From sequence record PQ349265.1: DNA of 64,000 bases, one strand, 5' to 3'. Made by a program: the position numbers and the translations under genes. Positions 2,196 to 42,142 of the stretch are shown here, in pieces. Within the stretch, counting starts at the first letter, position 1. Each line of letters opens with the position of its first letter. The stretch is from Escherichia phage CJY920. The notes under the pieces were generated by a model. The model was not told the DNA's origin and searched no databases. It was given only the letters and a program-made list of their open reading frames with translations.

Positions 2196-2852
2196 TTATT
2201 TAGCCCTTCCTAATATTCTGGCCGCCTGAGAACATATTGATTCAAGGCGGTCATTACTTATATGATCATTTCTATACCAGTACATGGTTATTGTTCCAGC
2301 ATAGATATTATCCAAATTGAAATATGGACAACTGTACATGTAATTTATTTCGGGAGTAGGCTTTTTAGTTGGTAAAAAAGCAAATTTTGAGTCGGAATAA
2401 TAATGACGTCCATTTAAATGAACTGTATATTCATCCATAGTTTTATCAACAGGATATCCTCCAAGTGATTTTTCGCTTATTGTTGAAGGTAATTTTCCTT
2501 CATATGCTATAATATCAACAAAATAGTTTAAGTTTTTAGGGCGGAAAGAATACACCGCACTAAAGTCTGCCTCAGATGATATATGAACTATCTGGAGTTG
2601 TTCCAGGGCGACAGATTCAAAGCGTGCATTTCTTTCCTTTTCAATAATTTCACTGTATGTTTCATACTTTGATTGCTTATAGTACTCAAAGAAACTATCT
2701 CCCCTATACCAAACAATCGCCATTATAAACAAAAGAATTACGACAGCTACCCGGGAAGCAAGAACTTTCCCGGTAGCGTTATCTTTGAACAAGCGATCTA
2801 GAACACCAAACAGAATATCAGAGGGCGAAAATGATATTCTAGGTGCTGCCAT
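2196..2852 (-). CDS. t: holin T (218 aa)
   Basis: Translation MAAPRISFSPSDILFGVLDRLFKDNATGK... with single N-terminal TM segment; 218 aa as in T4 t; downstream of gene 38. Confidence 0.9.
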   Translation of the reverse strand: MAAPRISFSPSDILFGVLDRLFKDNATGKVLASRVAVVILLFIMAIVWYRGDSFFEYYKQSKYETYSEIIEKERNARFESVALEQLQIVHISSEADFSAVYSFRPKNLNYFVDIIAYEGKLPSTISEKSLGGYPVDKTMDEYTVHLNGRHYYSDSKFAFLPTKKPTPEINYMYSCPYFNLDNIYAGTITMYWYRNDHISNDRLESICSQAARILGRAK

Positions 2853-2869
2853 AGACCCTCCTTTTAAGA

Positions 2870-2877
2870 TATTTATA
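2870..2877 (-). promoter_or_regulatory. late promoter TATAAATA for holin gene t, inside the 3' end of gene 38
   Basis: Plus-strand TATTTATA 18 nt upstream of the t start codon. Confidence 0.6.
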
Positions 2878-3424
2878 CGTAATGCTTGAATAAACGCTTA
2901 TACCAAGGCTTCTGTTCTTTTTCAGGCCATGAAGGGAATTCACCACCTAAATGCTCATGCTTTTCTAAAAGAGCAAAGAACCGCTTAAGGTTTTTATAAT
3001 AAAATTTTTCCTTTTTATTGGCGACAGAAGCTTCAATCATATTATTTAAAACTTGGAACTCTTTATATAATTCTTCAATTTTTCTATTACGAATTAAAAC
3101 TCGCTTATATGTTTCGTCTTCTTTCCAACCGTCATCAGTCCATATATCAAATTCGCCGGGCTCATCAAAAGTTATACCAACCGGGCTTCCAATGTCACTT
3201 ATAAAAATTTCTTCTTTATTAAAAGTCCATGCCCGTTTGCCGCGATGGTCTTCTTCATAAATCCAATCTTGAGTACGTTCATCAAATACAACCGCGTATC
3301 CTTCTTTAGGTTCTAAAGGTTTTTTAATTGTTGAATGAGCAGGAAGACCGAGGCCTTTAATCGGTTTGTAATTTTCTTCTTTGTAAAATTCTTTAGTGTC
3401 AAAATAATAATGATATATTTTCAT
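2873..3424 (-). CDS. 38: gp38 tail-fibre assembly chaperone (183 aa)
   Basis: 183 aa, directly after gene 37; preceded by the characteristic SD-hairpin-AUG split RBS. Confidence 0.85.
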   Translation of the reverse strand: MKIYHYYFDTKEFYKEENYKPIKGLGLPAHSTIKKPLEPKEGYAVVFDERTQDWIYEEDHRGKRAWTFNKEEIFISDIGSPVGITFDEPGEFDIWTDDGWKEDETYKRVLIRNRKIEELYKEFQVLNNMIEASVANKKEKFYYKNLKRFFALLEKHEHLGGEFPSWPEKEQKPWYKRLFKHYV

Positions 3425-3454
3425 ATTTAGAAGGGGCCGAAGCCCCTCTCCTTA
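3425..3454 (-). promoter_or_regulatory. split ribosome-binding site of gene 38 (SD - UUCG hairpin - AUG)
   Basis: Minus-strand mRNA UAAGGAGAG-GGGCUUCGGCCCC-UUCUAAAU-AUG; the gene 37 stop UAA overlaps the SD. Confidence 0.75.
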
Positions 3455-6400
3455 TGCTAAACGAACGATATAGTTAAAAGCAATGTTTTTAACCGTGTTT
3501 TCTGTATTACCTGTACTATTTACAGTGATAGTATGACCGTGCGAACCAATTGCTACCGTGTGGGTATGGGCACCGATACCTACAGTATGGGTATGAGCAC
3601 CTATACCTACAGTATGAGCATGGTTACCGGTGGTGTTAGTTACACCTGTCCAAGTTCTTGATGCGTGGAAATCAACGGGAGCGCCATAAGTGAAGTTGGA
3701 ACCTGTGAAGCCGTGTGAAGCCTGACTACTACCCATCACGAACGCTCCACTCGCGGTGTAGAATGAACTATTATCACTTCTGAACCAACCAAACACACCA
3801 GAGATTTCCATGTTACCTCTATCGTGAGCGTGGTTTCCAGTAGTATTGGTCGCTTTAGTACCATAATCAAATGATGAAGAGGTTTTAGTACCATAATCAA
3901 AACTTGATGTGGTTTTAGTACCCAAATCAGTATTAGATGCAGAAGCACTATGATTATGAGACTTAATACCATCAGCTTCAGCACTCAACACTGCGCGACC
4001 GCTCGGTTTACCTTTGATAGTTTGCCCACGCATATCTGGAATAACACCACTAGGATATGCAACAGCTAACTTAGGATATGCAGACTTATCAAAGGTTTGG
4101 CCTTCCATTAAAGCAAACCCGTCAGGAACTGAATCGCTCGGCCACGGAATTGGAGCACCTACCGGATAAGGTATCTGAGCATCGGAATACATCTTATACA
4201 CTTGTCCAAGTACATGGTCTGCAGGTAATTCTTCTACCGGTGATTGAGATGCACCATTAAGACCGATTACCGAAATATTGCTAGTATTTTCTGTAGCATC
4301 ATATTCAACCAATAAAGATTGGGCAAAAGAGCCCATGTATATGTATACATCATAATCATTACCAGATGTATTCACTGTAGCAATGTTTGACGGGCTGGTA
4401 CTAGTGCTAGACCACAGCGCCGCATTAATAGATTTAGGATTATTGTTACCAGTTCTAAGAACAATTTCACTTATGGATGCTTGTTCAGGAGAATTAGCAT
4501 TATAACCATTCCCGCCGATAATTTTGAAACGCGCGGTAGATGTAGATTGTGGCATTGTTACAGTAGCAAATTTGTACCAGTACCAGCCTACTACTTTATC
4601 AACACCTGACCATGTGCCAACATTAACTTTGCGGTTTAATGTGGTATTCAAGTTAGCAAAGTTTCCTGAACCACCAGTGATATTACCGTCAGTTCCTAGT
4701 TTGGTATTTCCAACTTTAAGAGGCTTAGTAATATCGACAGTATCAGAGTTTAATGCAATGCCATGGGCGTAGGTGTAATTATGCATACGAACAATGTTTC
4801 CACCATCACCAATACCTACATACCATTTTGTAACATCTGCTTTGCGTCCTTGGATGAAGTTAGAAGACTCTTGTGTTGGAGCATTTATTCTAATAGCATC
4901 GGCGGCAGTATTAACTGTTATACGCTGAGATGCTGTAGTACCTGATGTATCTACTTTAAACTTGCCCACGCCAATATCAACAACGTGTTCCATAGAAACT
5001 GCGCCGGTGCCTAACTCAATACTAAACGGGCGAAGTGGACCGATATCGCCATGTTTACCTTCACCGTAAGCAGTTGGAATAATATGAAGACTGCCTTCTG
5101 AACGTCTAAAAATGGCTCCATAATCTGCGTTCCAAATGCGAAGACCATTTACAGCATTTGTCGCGATTTCACCGGCTGCGCTGATTGTACCGTCAAATGT
5201 AGCATTTTTTACTACTGTAAAGTTTTCATTAACAATCTGGGTGCCATTTATAACCGATTCGACTTTACCCGCAGTTGTTCGTTGAATATAGCTCATCCAA
5301 CTAGTTGCGTCAGAAATTTCCATGACATTTTTACGGGTGCCTTCACTAGGATTAGTAAAGGTATTACCCCAAACTTTGATTTCCACATTATCAACTGAAC
5401 TATAACCGCTTGTATTTCCTTTGAACAACAGCGTAGAAGCATTATTACGACCATCAATATTAACCGAACCACCAATAACGTCAATATTGCCTGGAGTAAC
5501 TAACAAACCGCCATGAGTATTAATGTTTGTGGTACCTTTACCACGGAAATAGTGATGATAATTACCGCCTTGATAATATCCTAAAAGAGTCTGACCGTCA
5601 CCATACGCGTTATTATCATGATAAGTGACAACCGTCGCCAAAGCATAGTTTTCCGACGGAGGAGTGGTTAAATCGGTACCGTTTACAGAATAACCCATAA
5701 CCATTTTTCTAAGACTGGTGGTTTCTGCCGGGCCACTCAGGAAAGTTCTTGTGCCGTTGTTTACACTAAAGAAATAACCATCTTGGTGCCATTGTAAGCC
5801 GGTATCATTATCGCCAAGAGCAATTGAAGCTGTTCCTAATTCAGAATATCCTTTAGGGCCGTGTGGAAGACCTACAGAAACAGAATGACCTGCTTTCAAT
5901 CCACCAGACCAAGTAAATGACCAAAGATAGGCGTCTAATCCATCGCCGGCATACCAGGTTATTCCATCATTATCTTTAACTTCATGGAATATACCCGCAC
6001 CTACGGCATTACGCATAACACGAAGATGATTAATAGCGGTTTCGCTTTCTGCCAATGGGGTGTTATTTGCTAATGAATAGATATCATAATCGCCTGTCTT
6101 CTTCCCATTTGTAATAACTTTATCGGTCAGAATTTGTGGAGACGAAATAGATTTCCATGCTGATACTTCAGGTGAAGTAAATAGGCCACTGCCTGAAAAT
6201 GCATAAGTGCTTTCGTTACCAGCGGCGTAGTCTTGAACGCGGATATTAACTACTTGTGTAGTTAATCCATCATTAGCCGGGGCATAAATGATTCCACGTT
6301 CGCGACTATTGCCATCGAAAAAACGAACATGCGCTGTACCTGAACTTTTTGTAATAAGTTCTCCGCCTTCGGTCATAATCTGCCCGGCGGCAATAATATC

Positions 6401-32381: not shown

Positions 32382-32630
32382 ATGATTAAACAATTACAAC
32401 ACGCTCTTGAACTGCAACGAAACGCATGGAATAATGGTCACGAAAACTATGGTGCATCTATTGATGTTGAAGCCGAAGCTCTTGAAATCCTGCGTTATTT
32501 CAAACATCTGAATCCTGCTCAAACTGCACTAGCTGCCGAGCTTCAGGAAAAAGATGAACTTAAGTATGCTAAGCCTCTGGCTTCTGCTGCACGAAAAGCA
32601 GTTCGTCACTTTGTGGTAACACTGAAATAA
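32382..32630 (+). CDS. rIII: RIII lysis-inhibition accessory protein (82 aa)
   Basis: 82 aa; MIKQLQHALELQRNAWNNGHENYG...; position after gene 31. Confidence 0.8.
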   Translation: MIKQLQHALELQRNAWNNGHENYGASIDVEAEALEILRYFKHLNPAQTALAAELQEKDELKYAKPLASAARKAVRHFVVTLK

Positions 32631-33028
32631 TTTATTGGAGAGTCACTGCCTTAGTGTGAAGTTAAAACGAGGAGCCGTCGAACTGTCTGATTAATGATTT
32701 GCGAATCATTATAGTTTTAAGACCCCGGCAGTTTTACGGTGTACCTCTTGAATGTTATTCTTATAGCGGCAAGTGCATGCTACCCCGAGGTGATGGCCAA
32801 TCGGGAGTACGCCTCAAGGCCTATATATCCATCAGTATATATCTTATCCTCGAGAAATCGAACCCGGAACCTTTAAGCTAACGGTGTGCAACAGATAAGA
32901 GCTATAAGGTATGATGACGGGTTTATGGTTATCCTGGTCGTTAAATATCCAAAAACCTATGTTCCCCTTGAGGGCTTGCGCAGGCAATGCCAATAAGTCC
33001 TGCATTTTCATTTAAAAGAGAATTTATA

Positions 33029-34679: not shown

Positions 34680-34948
34680 TGTTTGTTGTTCATACTATTT
34701 ATGAAAATGAAGATAATACTACACGTGATTACGGTCACGTAAATCAATTTTTTAGATGCAATCCAGAATTCCGTGCTCAAAAAGACGAACGAATTTTTAA
34801 AAAATGTGTAGAACAAGGTTTCATTTACGTCAAGCACTGGATGCAAGGAAATAAAGTTAGAACTACATATCATAAGTCTTTGCCTGAGCTTAATGATGAA
34901 TTGATTTATAATAGAAATGTAAATCAAACTCTGAAGGATGAACAATGA
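34679..34948 (+). CDS. hypothetical protein (89 aa)
   Basis: ATG overlapping previous stop; precedes ligase. Confidence 0.5.
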   Translation: MFVVHTIYENEDNTTRDYGHVNQFFRCNPEFRAQKDERIFKKCVEQGFIYVKHWMQGNKVRTTYHKSLPELNDELIYNRNVNQTLKDEQ

Positions 34949-36405
34949 TTCTTAAAATTCTGAATGAAATAGCATCTATTGGATCAACTAAGCAGAAGCA
35001 AGCAATTCTTGAAAAGAATAAAGATAATGAATTGCTTAAACGAGTATATCGTCTGACTTATTCTCGTGGGTTACAGTATTATATCAAGAAATGGCCTAAG
35101 CCTGGTATTGCTACCCAGAGTTTTGGAATGCTGACCATTACCGATATGCTTGACTTTATTGAATTTACGTTAGCTACTCGGAAATTGACTGGAAATGCAG
35201 CAATTGAGGAATTAACTGGATATATCACTGATGGTAAAAAGGATGATGTTGAAGTTTTGCGTCGAGTTATGATGCGAGACCTTGAATGCGGTGCTTCAGT
35301 ATCTATTGCAAATAAAGTTTGGCCAGGTTTAATTCCTGAACAACCTCAAATGCTGGCAAGTTCTTATGATGAAAAAGGCATTAGTAAGAATATCAAGTTT
35401 CCAGCTTTTGCCCAGTTAAAAGCTGATGGGGCTCGGTGTTTTGCTGAAGTCAGAGGAGATGAATTAGATGATGTTCGTCTTTTATCACGAGCTGGTAATG
35501 AATATCTAGGATTAGATCTTCTTAAGGAAGAGTTAATCAAAATGACCGCTGAAGCCCGCCAGATTCATCCAGAAGGTGTGTTAATTGATGGCGAATTGGT
35601 ATACCATGAGCAAGTTAAAAAGGAACCAGAAGGCCTAGATTTTCTTTTTGACACTCCTGAAATTAGCAAAGCTAAAGACTTCGCAGAAGTAGCTGAATCT
35701 CGTACTGCTTCTAATGGAATCGCTAATAAATCTTTAAAGGGAACTATTTCTGAAAAAGAAGCTCAATGCATGAAGTTTCAGGTCTGGGATTATGTCCCGT
35801 TGGTAGAAATATACGGTCTTCCGGCGTTTCGTTTAAAATATGATGTACGTTTTTCTAAACTAGAACAAATGACATCAGGATATGATAAAGTAATTTTAAT
35901 TGAAAACCAGGTAGTAAATAACCTAGATGAAGCTAAGGTAATTTATAAAAAGTATATTGACCAAGGTCTTGAAGGTATTATTCTCAAAAATACCGATGGA
36001 TTGTGGGAAAATGCTCGTTCAAAAAATCTCTATAAATTTAAAGAAGTAATTGATGTTGATTTAAAAATTGTAGGAATTTATCCTCACCGTAAAGACCCTA
36101 CTAAAGCCGGTGGATTTATTCTTGAATCAGAATGTGGAAAAATTAAAGTAAATGCTGGTTCAGGCTTAAAAGATAAAGCCGGTGTAAAATCACATGAACT
36201 TGACCGTACTCGCATTATGGAAAACCAAAATTATTATATTGGAAAAATTCTAGAATGTGAATGCAACGGTTGGTTAAAATCTGACGGCCGCACTGATTAC
36301 GTTAAATTATTTCTTCCGATTGCGATTCGTTTACGTGAAGATAAAACTAAAGCTAATACATTCGAGGATGTATTTGGTGATTTTCATGAGGTAACTGGTC
36401 TATGA
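34945..36405 (+). CDS. 30: ATP-dependent DNA ligase (486 aa)
   Basis: MILKILNEIASIGSTKQKQAILEKNKDNELLKRVYRL...; adenylation motif KADGAR; size as T4 ligase. Confidence 0.9.
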   Translation: MILKILNEIASIGSTKQKQAILEKNKDNELLKRVYRLTYSRGLQYYIKKWPKPGIATQSFGMLTITDMLDFIEFTLATRKLTGNAAIEELTGYITDGKKDDVEVLRRVMMRDLECGASVSIANKVWPGLIPEQPQMLASSYDEKGISKNIKFPAFAQLKADGARCFAEVRGDELDDVRLLSRAGNEYLGLDLLKEELIKMTAEARQIHPEGVLIDGELVYHEQVKKEPEGLDFLFDTPEISKAKDFAEVAESRTASNGIANKSLKGTISEKEAQCMKFQVWDYVPLVEIYGLPAFRLKYDVRFSKLEQMTSGYDKVILIENQVVNNLDEAKVIYKKYIDQGLEGIILKNTDGLWENARSKNLYKFKEVIDVDLKIVGIYPHRKDPTKAGGFILESECGKIKVNAGSGLKDKAGVKSHELDRTRIMENQNYYIGKILECECNGWLKSDGRTDYVKLFLPIAIRLREDKTKANTFEDVFGDFHEVTGL

Positions 36406-36590
36406 AAGCTTACTTAGAAACAATTGTCATTGCTCAAAAAGAAGGTGGAGATGTTTCTACTTCTGTATCACAAGTCATTCTCGAATTTGTAGATGCATAT
36501 GCTTATAATAAATTTACAGAAACATTTGATGCCTATGAAAAAGGACCAAAGTTTGAAATATATCGTACTCTCTTACCACTAGATTACTAA
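36402..36590 (+). CDS. hypothetical small protein (62 aa)
   Basis: ATG overlapping ligase stop (ATGA). Confidence 0.45.
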   Translation: MKAYLETIVIAQKEGGDVSTSVSQVILEFVDAYAYNKFTETFDAYEKGPKFEIYRTLLPLDY

Positions 36591-36619
36591 AGGCCTTCGG
36601 GCCTTTAATTTTATAAATA
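36591..36619 (+). promoter_or_regulatory. terminator hairpin followed by late promoter TATAAATA for alt
   Basis: AGGCC-TTCG-GGCCT hairpin 36591-36604, then TATAAATA at 36612-19, 24 nt upstream of the alt ATG. Confidence 0.65.
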
Positions 36620-36642
36620 GAATAAACACTAGAGAGGATATG

Positions 36643-38736
36643 ATGGAACTCATTACAGAATTATTTGACGAAGATACTACTCTTCCGATTACAAACTTAA
36701 ATCCAAAGAAGAAAATACCACAAATTTTTTCAGTTCATGTTGATGACGCAATTGAACAACCAGGCTTTCGTTTATGTACCTATACATCTGGAGGTGATAC
36801 TAACCGTGATTTAAAGATGGGCGATAAAATGATGCATATTGTTCCTTTTACATTAACTGCTAAAGGTTCAATTGCTAAATTAAAAGGTCTCGGTCCAAGC
36901 CCAATTAATTATATCAATTCAGTTTTTACTGTTGCAATGCAGACGATGCGTCAGTATAAAATTGATGCCTGTATGCTCCGTATTCTTAAGTCTAAAACTG
37001 CCGGTCAAGCTCGACAAATTCAAGTTATTGCTGATAGACTTATCCGTAGTCGTTCAGGTGGCAGATACGTCCTTCTTAAGGAACTCTGGGATTATGATAA
37101 AAAGTATGCATATATTCTTATACATCGCAAAAATGTATCACTAGAAGACATTCCAGGAGTTCCGGAAATTAGTACCGAGCTCTTTACTAAAGTTGAATCG
37201 AAAGTCGGCGATGTTTATATCAATAAAGATACTGGAGCTCAAGTAACTAAAAATGAGGCAATTGCAGCATCTATTGCACAAGAAAACGATAAACGTTCTG
37301 ACCAAGCTGTAATCGTTAAAGTTAAAATTTCCCGTAGAGCAATTGCACAAAGTCAGTCATTGGAATCTTCTAGATTTGAAAGTGAATTATTCCAGAAGTA
37401 TGAATCTACTGCAGCTAATTTCAATAAACCTGCTACAGCTCCTTTAATTCCCGAAGCAGAAGAAATGAAACTTGGAATTAATTCAATAGCTTCTAAAACT
37501 AAGGCAGCAAAAATTATTGCCGAAGGAACCGCAAATGAACTTCATTATGATTATAAATTCTTTTCAAAAAGTGAGGTTAATGAAGTTTCTGAAAAAATTA
37601 AAGATGTAATTCTTAATGCGATTAAAAATGAACCGACTACTTCAATAAAATGTTTAGAGAAGTATGCAGCAGCTATTAATAAATTCTTTGAAGAATATAA
37701 AGATACTTGGCTTGATAAACATAATAAAACCCGTAAAGGACAGCCAGATGAAGTCTGGGAAGAAATGACTAAAAATTCCTGGAACGCAGCAAAAACTAAA
37801 TTCCTCAAAAGAATGATTTACAGCTTTTCTGGAATTGGTGCAGGTCCAATGATTGATATTACTATTGCCCGTGATGGTTCTAAATATACTCCATCACAAA
37901 AGCGCGGCATTAGAGAGTATTGTGGTTCAGGATATACTGACATCAATAATCTTCTTTTAGGACGCTACAATCCAGAACGATATGATGTAATGAGTGAAAA
38001 AGAAATTGAATCTGCTATAAATAACTTAGATTCAGCTTTTGAAAATGGTGACCGTATACCGGAAGGAATTACAGTTTATCGTGCACAAAGTATGACTGCT
38101 CCTATATACGAAGCACTAGTTAAAAATAAAGTGTTCTATTTCAGAAATTTTGTATCTACTTCTTTAACTCCTATCATTTTTGGACGTTTTGGAATTACAC
38201 ATGCTGGTATTGGTCTTTTAGAACCAGAAGCTCGTAATGAATTGACAGTTGATAAAAATGAAGAAGGAATAACTATTAATCCAAACGAAATAAGAGCGTA
38301 TAAAGAAAATCCTGAATACGTTAAAGTTCAAATAGGATGGGCAATTGATGGAGCTCATAAAGTTAATGTTGTATATCCAGGAAGTCTCGGAATAGCAACA
38401 GAAGCTGAAGTTATTCTACCACGCGGATTGATGGTCAAAGTTAATAAAATAACTGATGCTTCTAATAATGACGGAACAACATCTAATAACACAAAACTCA
38501 TTCAAGCTGAAGTTATGACTACAGAAGAACTCACCGAATCGGTAATTTATGACGGTGACAGTCTAATGGAAACTGGTGAAGTAGTTGCAATGACAGGTGA
38601 TATTGAAATAGAAGACAGAGTTGACTTTGCATCATTTGTTTCATCAAATGTTAAACAAAAAGTAGAATCATCTCTTGGAATTATTGCGTCTTGCATAGAT
38701 ATTACAAACATGCCTTACAAGTTCGTTCAAGGATAA
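36643..38736 (+). CDS. alt: Alt ADP-ribosyltransferase (capsid-packaged), 697 aa
   Basis: N-terminus MELITELFD...; ART R-S-ExE signature (VYRAQS, FVSTSL, EAEVILPRG); downstream of ligase as in T4. Confidence 0.85.
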   Translation: MELITELFDEDTTLPITNLNPKKKIPQIFSVHVDDAIEQPGFRLCTYTSGGDTNRDLKMGDKMMHIVPFTLTAKGSIAKLKGLGPSPINYINSVFTVAMQTMRQYKIDACMLRILKSKTAGQARQIQVIADRLIRSRSGGRYVLLKELWDYDKKYAYILIHRKNVSLEDIPGVPEISTELFTKVESKVGDVYINKDTGAQVTKNEAIAASIAQENDKRSDQAVIVKVKISRRAIAQSQSLESSRFESELFQKYESTAANFNKPATAPLIPEAEEMKLGINSIASKTKAAKIIAEGTANELHYDYKFFSKSEVNEVSEKIKDVILNAIKNEPTTSIKCLEKYAAAINKFFEEYKDTWLDKHNKTRKGQPDEVWEEMTKNSWNAAKTKFLKRMIYSFSGIGAGPMIDITIARDGSKYTPSQKRGIREYCGSGYTDINNLLLGRYNPERYDVMSEKEIESAINNLDSAFENGDRIPEGITVYRAQSMTAPIYEALVKNKVFYFRNFVSTSLTPIIFGRFGITHAGIGLLEPEARNELTVDKNEEGITINPNEIRAYKENPEYVKVQIGWAIDGAHKVNVVYPGSLGIATEAEVILPRGLMVKVNKITDASNNDGTTSNNTKLIQAEVMTTEELTESVIYDGDSLMETGEVVAMTGDIEIEDRVDFASFVSSNVKQKVESSLGIIASCIDITNMPYKFVQG

Positions 38737-38739
38737 ATC

Positions 38740-40797
38740 ATGGAACTTATTACAGAATTATTTGACGGCGCTTCGGCGCCGGTTGTTAACTTAAATCCTA
38801 AGCATAAAATACCTCAAATTTTTGCTATTCAAGCCGGTGAAGAAAGCGTGCTTCCTGGATTTAGATTTTGTACATACACCTCTGGCGGTGATACAAATAA
38901 AAATGTTAAGCCAGGCGATAAAATGATGCATATCGTAATGATAGGTGTTAATGAGAAACTATCATTAGTTAAACTTAAAAACTTGGGTGGAAATCCAATT
39001 GGTGTCATTAATGCGGTTTTTGATACTGCTCTTCAAACAATGAAACAGTATAAAATTGACGCATGCCTATTCCGCGTGCTAAAGAGTAAAACAAACGGTG
39101 CAGCTCGTCAAATGCAAGTTATTGCCGACCGTTTAGTACGTACTAAAGGAGCAGGTCGATATGTTCTTTTAAAGGAAATCTGGGACTATGATAAAAAGTA
39201 TGCATATATTATGGTTTACCGTAAAAATGCCAATTTAGAAGACATTCCAGGTGTACCTCCTATTTCAACTGAGTTATTCACAAAAGTTGAATCAAAGGTT
39301 GGTGATGTTTATGTAGACGTTAAAACAGGTAATGCTGTTCCTAAAGCTGTTGCTGTTGCTGCTTCTATTGCTTTAGAAAATGATAAGCGTACGGATCAAG
39401 CTGTTATTCAGAAAACTAAAATTAGTCGTCGATTAGCAGCACAAGCTCAATATTCTACTGTCGATGCTTCACTTCAGGGTGATAGCTTCGCTGCTAAGAA
39501 ATATCAAGAGTTTGAATCTAAAGTTCCGGTATATAAAGCAGAAGGACCAATGAACTCCGGTGTTATTCAAGTTGGTTCAAACTTCAGCAAAGGAGCTATC
39601 GGTGGTATGAGGAGTGCTTCTCGTTTTAAATCTAATGATTATGAATTAGAAAGCTTCCGAAATCATATTGCATTGGCTCATGCACGTTTACGTGATCCAT
39701 CTATCAAGTTACAGAGCGATATAACATATCAAGGTTCTCAGGAATATTTAAAGAATAAAGAATTTTTTGATTATAAAACTGATAAAATTTTAAGCGATCT
39801 TGCTGACATTAATATTTCTAATAGCTTTGATGTTATTAAGAAAATTGTCAATGATTTAGTTAAAGGTTCTAAAGCCACACCAGATGAAAAGGTAGCTATT
39901 GTTCAATTTGTCATGAATGGCGTTTATAAATTGATTAATGAATCTGCTTCTCAAGCGTATGAATACGCAAGCACCGAAGTAACTCCAAAAGGATTAACTC
40001 AGGCTGAGTCTGATGTAATTGAAGATTATTGTGCAGATTCATATGTTGAAATGAACTCGTTCCTTTTAGGTAAACCAGATTCTACTCGTGAAGAATATAT
40101 GGAACGAGCTATTAAACACATCGAGACAATGGATTCTGCCTTTGCCAAAGGATCAGTTCTTCCTCCAGGAACTACACTTTATCGTGGACAAGAAGTTACC
40201 TTTAAAACTTTACGTCATAATATTGAAAATAAAATGTTCTATTTCAAGAACTTCGTATCCACATCGCTTAAACCAAATATCTTCGGTGAGTATGGTAAAA
40301 ACTATATGGCTCTAGATGATTTCAGTGCAGTATTTTCTGGTGAAGGAGAAGGTTCAGTTGATGCTGAAGATTTAATGCATATGGGTAGTCATTCTGCTTA
40401 TGCGAATGAAGATGCTGAAACTAGCGTAGGTATGGTAATTAAAGGAGCTGAGCGAATCAAAGTTATCGTTCCAGGACATTTATCAGGATTTCCATCAGAA
40501 GCTGAAGTTATTCTACCGCGTGGAATTTTGCTGAAGATTAATAAAGTGAGTACGTACATGATGAAAGAAACTGCTTATAATAAGTATCTAATCGAAGGCA
40601 CAATCGTTCCTCCTTCTGAACAATTAGAAGAATCGGTATATGATGGCGACCATCTAATGGAAACTGGTGAAGTTCGTCCAATGGCTGGATTTAATCAATT
40701 CCTTGTAGAAGAATCAAAAGAAGAGGAAAACGAAGTTTCTCAAATCTTGGCTTCTTTGGTTAACATCAACGGAATGTCTAAAAAGTTCAAGATGTAG
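38740..40797 (+). CDS. Alt-like ADP-ribosyltransferase paralog (685 aa)
   Basis: Collinear with upstream alt at roughly half identity by eye; conserved MELITELFD N-terminus, LYRGQE / FVSTSL / EAEVILPRG motifs; SD AAGGA inside the end of the upstream gene. Confidence 0.8.
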   Translation: MELITELFDGASAPVVNLNPKHKIPQIFAIQAGEESVLPGFRFCTYTSGGDTNKNVKPGDKMMHIVMIGVNEKLSLVKLKNLGGNPIGVINAVFDTALQTMKQYKIDACLFRVLKSKTNGAARQMQVIADRLVRTKGAGRYVLLKEIWDYDKKYAYIMVYRKNANLEDIPGVPPISTELFTKVESKVGDVYVDVKTGNAVPKAVAVAASIALENDKRTDQAVIQKTKISRRLAAQAQYSTVDASLQGDSFAAKKYQEFESKVPVYKAEGPMNSGVIQVGSNFSKGAIGGMRSASRFKSNDYELESFRNHIALAHARLRDPSIKLQSDITYQGSQEYLKNKEFFDYKTDKILSDLADINISNSFDVIKKIVNDLVKGSKATPDEKVAIVQFVMNGVYKLINESASQAYEYASTEVTPKGLTQAESDVIEDYCADSYVEMNSFLLGKPDSTREEYMERAIKHIETMDSAFAKGSVLPPGTTLYRGQEVTFKTLRHNIENKMFYFKNFVSTSLKPNIFGEYGKNYMALDDFSAVFSGEGEGSVDAEDLMHMGSHSAYANEDAETSVGMVIKGAERIKVIVPGHLSGFPSEAEVILPRGILLKINKVSTYMMKETAYNKYLIEGTIVPPSEQLEESVYDGDHLMETGEVRPMAGFNQFLVEESKEEENEVSQILASLVNINGMSKKFKM

Positions 40798-40849
40798 TTT
40801 ACAAGTCCCTCGTGTTGTGTTATAATAATCTTACTGACATAACATGAGG
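40797..40849 (+). promoter_or_regulatory. early promoter with embedded inverted repeat (copy B)
   Basis: GTTTAC 40797-802, TGTTATAAT; arms CCTCGTGTT (40808-16) and AACATGAGG (40841-49); about 50 bp near-identical to 26762-26814. Confidence 0.6.
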
Positions 40850-40857
40850 AACACAAA

Positions 40858-41148
40858 ATGAAATCTTCTTTGCGCTTTTTAGGCCAAGAACTTGTAGTTG
40901 AAGGCGTTATTCCTGCTGATAACACTTTTAATGAAGCAGTTTATGATGAATTTATCAAAATTTTTGGAACAGATAAAAAGTTCGGAATTTTTCCTTCTGA
41001 AAATTTTTCAAAGCCAGAGCAGACTGAAAGCATTTTCCAGGGTGTAGTAACAGGTAAATTTGAGTCAGAAGCTCCGGTAAAAATTGAAGTTTATATTGAA
41101 GATAGTTTAGTTGCTTCAGTTTCCGCTTTTATTTCATTCCGTAAATAA
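40858..41148 (+). CDS. hypothetical protein (96 aa)
   Basis: ATG 8 nt after GAGGA; followed by a bidirectional terminator. Confidence 0.5.
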   Translation: MKSSLRFLGQELVVEGVIPADNTFNEAVYDEFIKIFGTDKKFGIFPSENFSKPEQTESIFQGVVTGKFESEAPVKIEVYIEDSLVASVSAFISFRK

Positions 41149-41154
41149 AAACAT

Positions 41155-41172
41155 GGGGACCTTTCGGTCCCC
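41155..41172. terminator. bidirectional terminator hairpin between the 96-aa ORF (+) and gene 54 (-)
   Basis: GGGGACC-TTTC-GGTCCCC with flanking T/A runs. Confidence 0.7.
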
Positions 41173-41176
41173 ATTG

Positions 41177-42142
41177 TTATATTGCTCCTAATATTTTACT
41201 TTGCGAGTTGACAATTCCCGTCATAGTATTAATGTTTGAAATGCTTCCTGCAGTTCCTCCTAATCTACTAAGTCGTGAAAGCGAATTAGATAGTCCAGTA
41301 ACACCTCCACTATTTCCGAGAACGCTTTGAATGCCATTTATAGCAGCAGATTCAAGCCACTCAAGCGCAGCTTGTCTATCAACCGCTCCAGCCTGCATGA
41401 CTCTATACGCAAAAGTAACATCAAATGTAGTTATTTGGTTATCTCCATCATATGATAACTCAGGAGCGCTCACTGACACTGGAATGCATCCGGTGAACAT
41501 CACAGCAGTATGAGGTAATCCATTACGAGCATGAAGATTAACCTGAATATCTGCCTCGACATCTTGTGGCAAAGCACGCAGTCCAGTTACTGGGTCTTGA
41601 ACAGCATTAACCCAGTCTTGCATTGCACGATAATTACATGCTTCTGAATCCATTCTAAATGAAATAACCAAAGGGTCTAATTCTCTCCCAGTTATACGAA
41701 TATTAGGAGAATTATAGTTCCAGTCAGTTTCATAGGATAATCTATTCTCTGGCATTTTTACTGAATATATCATCAATCCAGATGAGTTATATGCCATATT
41801 AAAGAAGTCAATTAAATATGTACCAACTGTAAATGAGCCCAATAAACTTTGAACTGTACGTTGACTCATGGCACCAATAAGATATTTACTAACTCCTGAT
41901 TTTCTTATCAGTTTTTGTGTGCCAGCAGTAATTAGCGTGGTAATTCCCTGATTAATATCGACTTGAGTCAATCCTAACCAATCTGAATTTAAACCCAAGT
42001 TATTATAAGAAAAGTTGCTAATTGAACTTATCAACGAAGAGCTTTTAGTTGATGGAGTTGTCGCAAAAACGCAGCTAAACATATTATTACGTTGGAAATC
42101 TGCGTTTATTGCTTGATTATTAAATTCCTCTAAAGAATACAT
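41177..42142 (-). CDS. 54: gp54 baseplate tail-tube initiator (321 aa)
   Basis: Size and order 54-48-29-28-27-51 as in T4. Confidence 0.8.
   Translation of the reverse strand: MYSLEEFNNQAINADFQRNNMFSCVFATTPSTKSSSLISSISNFSYNNLGLNSDWLGLTQVDINQGITTLITAGTQKLIRKSGVSKYLIGAMSQRTVQSLLGSFTVGTYLIDFFNMAYNSSGLMIYSVKMPENRLSYETDWNYNSPNIRITGRELDPLVISFRMDSEACNYRAMQDWVNAVQDPVTGLRALPQDVEADIQVNLHARNGLPHTAVMFTGCIPVSVSAPELSYDGDNQITTFDVTFAYRVMQAGAVDRQAALEWLESAAINGIQSVLGNSGGVTGLSNSLSRLSRLGGTAGSISNINTMTGIVNSQSKILGAI

Follow-up and report, generated by a model that had tools for sequence, protein, structure and literature searches.

The tandem alt locus of Escherichia phage CJY920

Alt is a textbook case of an enzyme that a phage injects along with its DNA in order to reprogramme the host cell, and knowledge of it comes nearly all from T4, where the known substrate is the alpha subunit of RNA polymerase. 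The present analysis concerns a stretch of 64,000 nucleotides (nt) from Escherichia phage CJY920 (record PQ349265.1; one strand, 5' to 3'; hereafter the window), in which the T-even alt locus is complete and holds two tandem genes of the Alt ADP-ribosyltransferase (ART) family, designated altA and altB. The genes follow the Tequatrovirus order lig - alt.1 - altA - altB - alt.-3 - 54 (taken from the listing of open reading frames (ORFs), Pfam and the T4 annotation), and the pair has gene 30/alt.1 on one side and alt.-3/54 on the other and follows a late promoter. The two genes and their enzyme cores lie as follows:

36643-38736, + strand: altA, 697 amino acids (aa; 698 aa from 36640); positional orthologue of T4 alt with a "T2-type" effector allele
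37879-38523, + strand: AltA ART core (R480 at 38080-38082; S505/S507 at 38155-38163; E587 at 38401-38403; E589 at 38407-38409)
38740-40797, + strand: altB, 685 aa; second Alt paralogue
39985-40614, + strand: AltB ART core (R482 at 40183-40185; S507/S509 at 40258-40266; E587 at 40498-40500; E589 at 40504-40506)

Family membership and catalytic core

altA and altB are both intact and belong to the T4 Alt family. Full-length matches to PHROG 802 (phrog_802) were obtained for AltA (E 8.2e-273, residues 1-696) as well as AltB (E 2.1e-254, residues 1-685), and PF03496 (ADPrib_exo_Tox) was matched at 130 and 73.2 bits, respectively, against a Pfam gathering cut-off of 23.4; a search of NCBIfam gave no hits. 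The proteins align with each other over their whole length at 41% identity across 716 columns (BLASTP, E 3e-159), and their first nine residues, MELITELFD, are identical. A first-pass annotation, made from the sequence alone, had described two adjacent collinear ORFs of about 690 aa as diverged Alt paralogues that share this N-terminus, with a cleavage site of the L/I-x-E type, and an R-S-ExE signature; the lengths (697 and 685 aa), the divergence, the site (ITE-6 in both) and the signature are all confirmed.

The motifs are VYRAQS (R480), FVSTSL (S505-T-S507) and EAEVILPRG (E587, E589) in AltA, and LYRGQE (R482), FVSTSL (S507-T-S509) and EAEVILPRG (E587, E589) in AltB. On proper alignment of 19 sequences (the two proteins and 17 relatives, T4 Alt included), the catalytic R, S-T-S and E-x-E are intact throughout, and the catalytic residues are likewise invariant in an 18-sequence alignment of AltB. 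The link between E-x-E or Q-x-E and the acceptor residue is established for the ADP-ribosyltransferase family; both proteins carry E-A-E, i.e., the arginine-directed E-x-E and not the asparagine-directed Q-x-E.

The likeness to toxins of the R-S-E clade was tested by sequence for AltA and by model for AltB. The Arg and E-x-E of AltA align with the catalytic residues of CdtA, and the Arg and S-T-S of AltB with those of Vis. In the AlphaFold model of AltB (mean predicted local distance difference test (pLDDT) score 76.7), the core matched Vis, Certhrax, CDTa, C3 (C3bot) and iota Ia in the PDB (E 2e-7 to 2e-4, target template-modelling (TM) score 0.6-0.67), with Vis (4xzk) at E 1.7e-7 and target TM 0.64; a sequence search of the PDB found no solved Alt structure. 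The Alt proteins thus have the fold and catalytic triad in common with C3 exoenzyme, iota Ia, CDTa and Vis, but sequence identity to them is 14-19%, Alt has a long insert between S-T-S and E-x-E, and the toxins are delivered by secretion or a binary-toxin pore while Alt is delivered by the phage head.

The layout of AltA and AltB is common to both. From the N-terminus onwards, it comprises a 6-residue propeptide, a lineage-specific N-domain of ~230 aa, a variable helical middle region, the C3/iota-like ART core, an L-x-E site and a tail of ~55-65 aa.

Packaging and processing cues

The following elements of the two proteins bear on head packaging and on processing by the prohead protease gp21, cleavage being predicted from the motifs alone by comparison of their positions with the T4 Alt sites:

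36643-36660, + strand: AltA N-terminal propeptide MELITE with predicted gp21 site ITE-6
36661-37347, + strand: AltA N-terminal domain (aa 7-235), Pfam PF26846 (Tevenvirinae_ADPRT)
38530-38538, + strand: AltA C-terminal gp21 motif LTE-632, homologous to LTE-619 of T4; the C-terminal propeptide after it is 65 aa long
40624-40632, + strand: AltB C-terminal gp21-type motif LEE-631; the tail after it is 54 aa long

The PF26846 assignment comes from precomputed matches on a 98%-identical protein (P0001) and on the fusion genes described below. AltB has ITE-6 as well, and its LEE-631 precedes a conserved SVYDGDxLMETGEV; E631 is invariant in the 18-sequence alignment, and the tail beyond it falls below a pLDDT of 50 in the model. 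T4 Alt is cut at ITE-6 and LTE-619, as mapped by mass spectrometry, to give a 68.2-kDa product (PMC5694885), and the mass computed here for T4 Alt residues 7-619 is 68.2 kDa, in agreement with the published value. Furthermore, T4 Alt belongs to the prohead core, with 40 copies in each head, and is cut by gp21 and ejected into the host (PMC9026906), and the Alt of a Mosigvirus has been detected in virions by mass spectrometry (PMC6563131). The internal proteins IPI-III of T4 resemble Alt in having a short N-terminal leader that gp21 cuts after L/I-x-E and in being injected with the DNA, and their cargo varies between related phages (PMC3012670, PMC9026906). A large conserved N-domain and a C-terminal propeptide set the Alt proteins apart from IPI-III, and the Alt cargo is almost always an ADP-ribosyltransferase.

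Expression signals

Signals upstream of altA and between the two genes are arranged as follows:

36588-36607, + strand: terminator-like hairpin AAAGGCCTTCGGGCCTTT with a T-run, which would end upstream early transcription before alt
36612-36619, + strand: late promoter motif of T4 type, TATAAATA; it closely follows the hairpin, and 23 nt separate it from the ATG at 36643
36632-36638, + strand: altA Shine-Dalgarno sequence GAGAGGA
38729-38742, + strand: altA/altB junction AAGGA-TAA-ATC-ATG (Shine-Dalgarno sequence within the end of altA, stop, 3-nt spacer, altB start)

The hairpin is also present before alt in T4, T2, PP01, RB32, AR1, IME341, ATK47 and pKp20, and a terminator upstream of alt has been reported as conserved (PMC1524935). 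At the late-promoter position, (T/C)ATAAATA occurs in 12/12 of the loci compared, and the succession of hairpin, (T/C)ATAAATA, GAGG and ATG precedes alt in T4, T2, PP01, RB32, AR1, REP2, ECML-134 and PST as well as in one Dhakavirus, one Mosigvirus and one Jiaodavirus. The ATG at 36643 is the likelier start of AltA, because its spacing from GAGG is 5 nt and REP2 lacks the upstream ATG.

At the junction, 3 nt lie between the altA stop TAA (38734-38736) and the ATG of altB, and AAGGA overlaps the end of altA. CAAGGA-TAA-ATC-ATG is identical in all Tequatrovirus loci compared, T4 included, and Dhakavirus keeps the 3-nt spacer. On account of the motif order and the conserved junction, a single late promoter with altB translationally coupled to altA is the best reading, and it agrees with the single late promoter (TATAAATA at 36612) and close coupling (3-nt gap with an embedded Shine-Dalgarno sequence) that the first-pass annotation had proposed. 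A second late promoter within altA was considered and rejected: the sole other copy of TATAAATA in the pair, at 38016, is probably incidental because PP01, T4 and the Dhakavirus orthologue lack it.

The T4 remnant and the distribution of altB

In the T4 annotation, alt is followed by two small ORFs, alt.-1 and alt.-2. The former matches AltB residues 1-56 at 95% identity and the latter residues 62-116 at 98%, whereas their identity to T4 Alt is only 56-62%. Two features of altB correspond to the T4 lesions:

38896-38905, + strand: A-run AATAAAAATG, site of the 1-nt loss in T4 that divides the gene into alt.-1 and alt.-2
39079-40786, + strand: segment between the 9-bp imperfect direct repeats CTAAAGAGT (39079-39087) and CTAAAAAGT (40778-40786), of which 1,699 bp are lost in T4

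With the 1-nt loss and the 1,699-bp deletion both traceable at the DNA level, T4 therefore holds the wreck of altB. In the T4 annotation, alt.-1/alt.-2 are taken for an old duplicate of the initial part of alt, and in that of RB32 the full gene is described as an "apparent insertion"; the sequences compared here show the reverse direction: T4 has lost altB and is the derived exception, with the window representing the common state. The claim of the first-pass annotation that T4 has a single alt stands insofar as T4 has one intact alt, but not as regards alt.-1 and alt.-2, which are remnants of altB.

The segment missing in T4 occurs in 401 phage records, with 90-99% nt identity (T2, RB32, RB7, AR1 and PP01 among them), and the exact T4 deletion junction in 90 (T4 stocks and wild isolates, e.g., ACG-C40, RB55, RB59, HY03 and SG1), both counts including duplicate RefSeq/GenBank entries; altB is thus intact in about four-fifths of the related records with either state. 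Intact AltB is found at 95-99.6% aa identity in ~400 phage records. Further, megablast of 36400-41200 matched 542 phage records, 343 of them with at least 80% query cover and the best 97.8% identical, and many of the matched records are annotated "Alt-like RNA polymerase ADP-ribosyltransferase (x2)". The genes named "alt.-2" in RB32 and "alt.-1" in T2 are the same gene as altB and 97-98% identical to it at full length.

Some AltB clusters are shortened by N-terminal loss, namely P0005 (624 aa, 36 members), P0008 (528 aa) and P0010 (415 aa); P0005 begins at the Met of T4 alt.-2. These clusters may be intermediates that have acquired the frameshift but not the large deletion, or they may stem from errors in sequencing homopolymers.

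Tandem Alt pairs are also known from Dhakavirus (IME341, and JS98 and Bp7 per PMC4177764), Aeromonas phage 44RR and the Acinetobacter phages Ac42 and ZZ1. Dhakavirus has the tandem arrangement and 3-nt junction of the window, with an A-type core in the upstream gene and a B-type core in the downstream gene. Nolan et al. (2006) described T4 alt.-1/alt.-2, RB49ORF183c and 44RRORF188c as paralogous alt duplications and 44RRORF187c as a full-length duplicate (PMC1524935), and Jin et al. (2014) reported an alt duplication in Ac42, JS98 and Bp7 (PMC4177764). The novelty of the pair that had been implied does not hold, since ~400 phage records (T2 and RB32 included) contain it and both of these papers mention alt duplications; the tandem alt pair is already known, annotated and ordinary for T-even phages.

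Selection on the two genes

The ratio of non-synonymous to synonymous substitution (dN/dS) is 0.03-0.06 for AltB at dS 0.10-0.28 (six Tequatrovirus orthologues), and none of four segments reaches 0.09; for AltA it is 0.04-0.08, with dS across both genes at 0.07-0.28. Both altA and altB are under strong purifying selection.

Recent gene conversion was considered as the source of the similarity between the paralogue N-domains and was ruled out: at dS 1.36, synonymous sites of the N-domain are saturated, and therefore no recent conversion has occurred in this genome. Despite this value, the first 27 nt of the paralogues (36643-36669 and 38740-38766) differ by one synonymous change only, which points to constraint at the nucleotide level or to conversion over a very short tract.

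Domain histories and exchange of the core cassette

The histories of the domains were followed by segment-wise identities and neighbour-joining trees without bootstrap. In the N-domain (aa 1-235), paralogues of one genome cluster together, with 68% identity in the window and 66% in IME341, as against 42-46% between genera; AltB is also 68% identical to T4 Alt in this domain. The middle region and ART core cluster by type across genera and not by genome: the AltA core is 96% aa identical to that of the upstream Alt of IME341, and the AltB core 57% to that of the downstream gene, while the single Alt of Mosigvirus falls on the A-type side. Between AltA and AltB, identity is 35% in the ART core and 12-19% in the middle domain, and the loop before E-x-E differs (GIATEAE and SGFPSEAE, respectively).

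T4 Alt (NP_049811) agrees with the window in locus, late promoter, hairpin, domain order, the R, S-T-S and E-x-E residues and both gp21 motifs. AltB is 41% identical to it overall. AltA matches it at 100% aa identity in the N-domain and 94% in the C-tail, but at 33% in the middle region and 65% in the ART core, with no nucleotide match over 37449-37879. The nt identities of altA along its codons are as follows:

Codons 1-240 and 661-end, altA vs T4 alt: 95-99%
Codons 241-630, altA vs T4 alt: 37-73%
Codons 421-630, altA vs IME341 upstream alt: 86-98%
Elsewhere, altA vs IME341 upstream alt: about 50-74%

The IME341 stretch compared is L007 2414-3849, set against window 37879-38523 (AltA codons ~421-630); in the N-domain and C-tail on either side, identity is no more than about 50-60%. 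These codon-window identities thus mark the enzyme core as a cassette exchanged between genera inside lineage-bound flanks. They point to a recent inter-genus exchange of the AltA cassette, the T4 Alt core being the more divergent allele. Strict orthology of AltA to T4 alt, with high identity across the core too, was not found; AltA is better described as a positional orthologue of T4 alt with a different cassette.

AltA occurs as at least two alleles, one shared by T4 and AR1 and one by T2, RB32, PP01 and the window, with further variants of ~60% identity (P0016, P0018). AltB occurs as a single allele that phages either retain or have lost. In AR1, a T4-type AltA stands next to an intact AltB, and allele type and AltB loss are therefore separable.

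Natural fusions and the spread of the N-domain

Four protein clusters start as AltA and continue as AltB, with clean switches at AltB residues ~43, 102, 174 and 218, and the contigs of these fusion clusters have one gene between alt.1 and alt.-3. The cultured phage ECML-134 and Yersinia phage PST likewise carry a single fusion gene (switches at ~147-158 and 98-102) that joins the AltA N-terminus to the middle region, core and C-terminal tail of AltB; SCS4 does so too, as seen by tblastn only. The fusion genes located are:

L015 (ECML-134), 2501-4561
L016 (PST), 2501-4561
L013, 4001-6061
L014, 4001-6055

With a different crossover in each, the fusions look like independent deletions by unequal recombination between the paralogue N-domains. 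They retain a B-type core behind an A-type N-terminus, which argues that the B core is useful alone and that the N-domains are interchangeable.

A HMMER search with AltB residues 1-235 against 1.84 billion cluster representatives retrieved only 69 proteins, nearly all of 600-710 aa. PF03496 was present in eight of ten distant N-domain homologues, in one of the eight as a short sub-threshold fragment within a 461-aa protein. For two proteins, P0183 (485 aa) and P0184 (541 aa), the Alt match is limited to the first 140-165 residues, and the remaining ~350 residues had no Pfam or PHROG match; these may combine an Alt-type delivery domain with a non-ART or very divergent cargo.

Flanking genes and further features

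The remaining features of the locus are listed below:

34945-36405: DNA ligase gene 30
36402-36590: alt.1, 62 aa, overlapping the ligase stop; Pfam PF24647 "Phage blade protein" (Phage_blade), E 2e-29
40798-40826, + strand: early-type sigma-70 promoter for alt.-3 (TTTACA-17-TATAAT with TG), directly after the altB stop
40858-41148, + strand: alt.-3, 96 aa, DUF5498; final gene before the terminator
41153-41174: bidirectional terminator hairpin between alt.-3 and gene 54
Beyond alt.-3, opposite strand: genes 54, 48 and 29

alt.1 is kept immediately 5' of alt in several genera. The early-type promoter at 40798-40826 is conserved in the compared loci, and alt.-3 is probably on the late transcript as well. 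Its product is 98% identical to T4 Alt.-3, mutants of which with a C-terminal extension escape the CmdTAC defence system (PMC11618068). ModA and ModB should lie outside the window, as expected by synteny with T4. Farther upstream, G+C at 32500-32999 is 0.44, as against ~0.35 around it.

Proposed roles of AltA and AltB and alternative explanations

Most likely, with a probability of roughly 0.7, AltA and AltB are both head-packaged, injected, arginine-specific enzymes with different targets, encoded by a complete Tequatrovirus alt locus. In the corresponding mechanism, a late transcript would start at the TATAAATA promoter (36612) and run through altA, altB and alt.-3 to the terminator at 41153, with translation of AltB coupled to the termination of AltA. 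Both proteins would enter the prohead core and be trimmed by gp21 after Glu6 and at the C-terminal L-x-E, and the trimmed forms would stay in the head and be injected with the DNA, there to mono-ADP-ribosylate arginines of host proteins at the expense of NAD+. AltA would be the counterpart of T4 Alt with a different allele of the enzyme core, and T4 Alt uses NAD to ADP-ribosylate Arg265 of the RNA polymerase alpha subunit, along with further host proteins (PMC10468400, PMC9503650). The substrate set of AltB most likely differs from that of AltA. The idea of different host targets, raised in the first-pass annotation, would fit the 35% core and 12-19% middle-domain identity together with purifying selection on each gene.

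Several points weigh against this proposal. T4 and ~90 records, wild isolates included, do without AltB, which is therefore dispensable on at least some hosts. The single transcript and the coupling of translation are deduced solely from motifs, the AltB model was built from the 18-sequence alignment, and the dN/dS values derive from six sequences per gene by a simple counting method. Finally, the literature search, thin in subscription journals, found no proteomic, biochemical or functional study of AltB, and PMC7917993 has no Alt proteomics in it.

The alternatives differ in what they ask of AltB. A redundant duplicate heading to loss, present here as an ORF and contributing nothing distinct, would account for T4 having only the remnants alt.-1 and alt.-2, for the T4-type junction in 90 records with environmental isolates among them and for the N-terminally shortened clusters (624, 528 and 415 aa). 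Nevertheless, we hold it to be unlikely, given that dN/dS is 0.03-0.06 across the domains of AltB at dS up to 0.28, that the gene is intact in ~400 records and its B-type orthologue is retained in Dhakavirus, that the catalytic residues are invariant and that the fusion phages retain the B core while dropping the A core. It is similarly improbable that AltB is active but works in the producing cell late in infection, neither packaged nor injected. T4 Alt, the AltA counterpart, is alone in having been shown in heads, and no virion proteomics of AltB was found in the literature search; against this, AltB has the propeptide MELITE, the N-domain and both gp21-type motifs in common with its packaged paralogue, it would share the late promoter with AltA, and in the fusion phages it is the AltA N-terminus that carries the B core.

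Still less credence is given to AltA and AltB having identical targets, with the duplication raising dose only or serving a hetero-oligomer. The arginine-type E-x-E and the overall architecture are kept in both, as such a role would have it, yet a dose duplicate would be expected to remain similar, whereas the core is 35% and the middle domain 12-19% identical, the substrate-facing loops differ, and the A-type and B-type effector halves are old lineages, each conserved and clustering across genera. Two injected enzymes with distinct targets therefore remain the preferred reading. Since altB is lost in T4 and ~90 records and A(N)::B(C) fusions occur in few phages, the second enzyme is to be regarded as an accessory effector that is usually kept.

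Implications for the T-even phages

T4 is atypical in that most of the related records with either state have an intact, strongly conserved second Alt enzyme. Work on phage ADP-ribosylation, RNAylation or host range in T2, the RB-series and therapeutic T4-like phages should accordingly expect a fourth transferase. Furthermore, the exchange of cores and the natural A::B fusions provide ready material for finding which part of Alt directs packaging.

On a broader level, we put at about even odds the proposition that most T-even phages inject two Alt enzymes, with AltB having targets of its own (e.g., defence or translation proteins in place of RNA polymerase alpha) and the locus acting as a cassette system. 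If this is true, the T4-based picture of "three phage ADP-ribosyltransferases" would describe a lineage that is short of one, and a lineage-specific N-domain together with a C-terminal propeptide would deliver interchangeable enzyme cores that have been moved between genera and reshuffled by recombination between paralogues.

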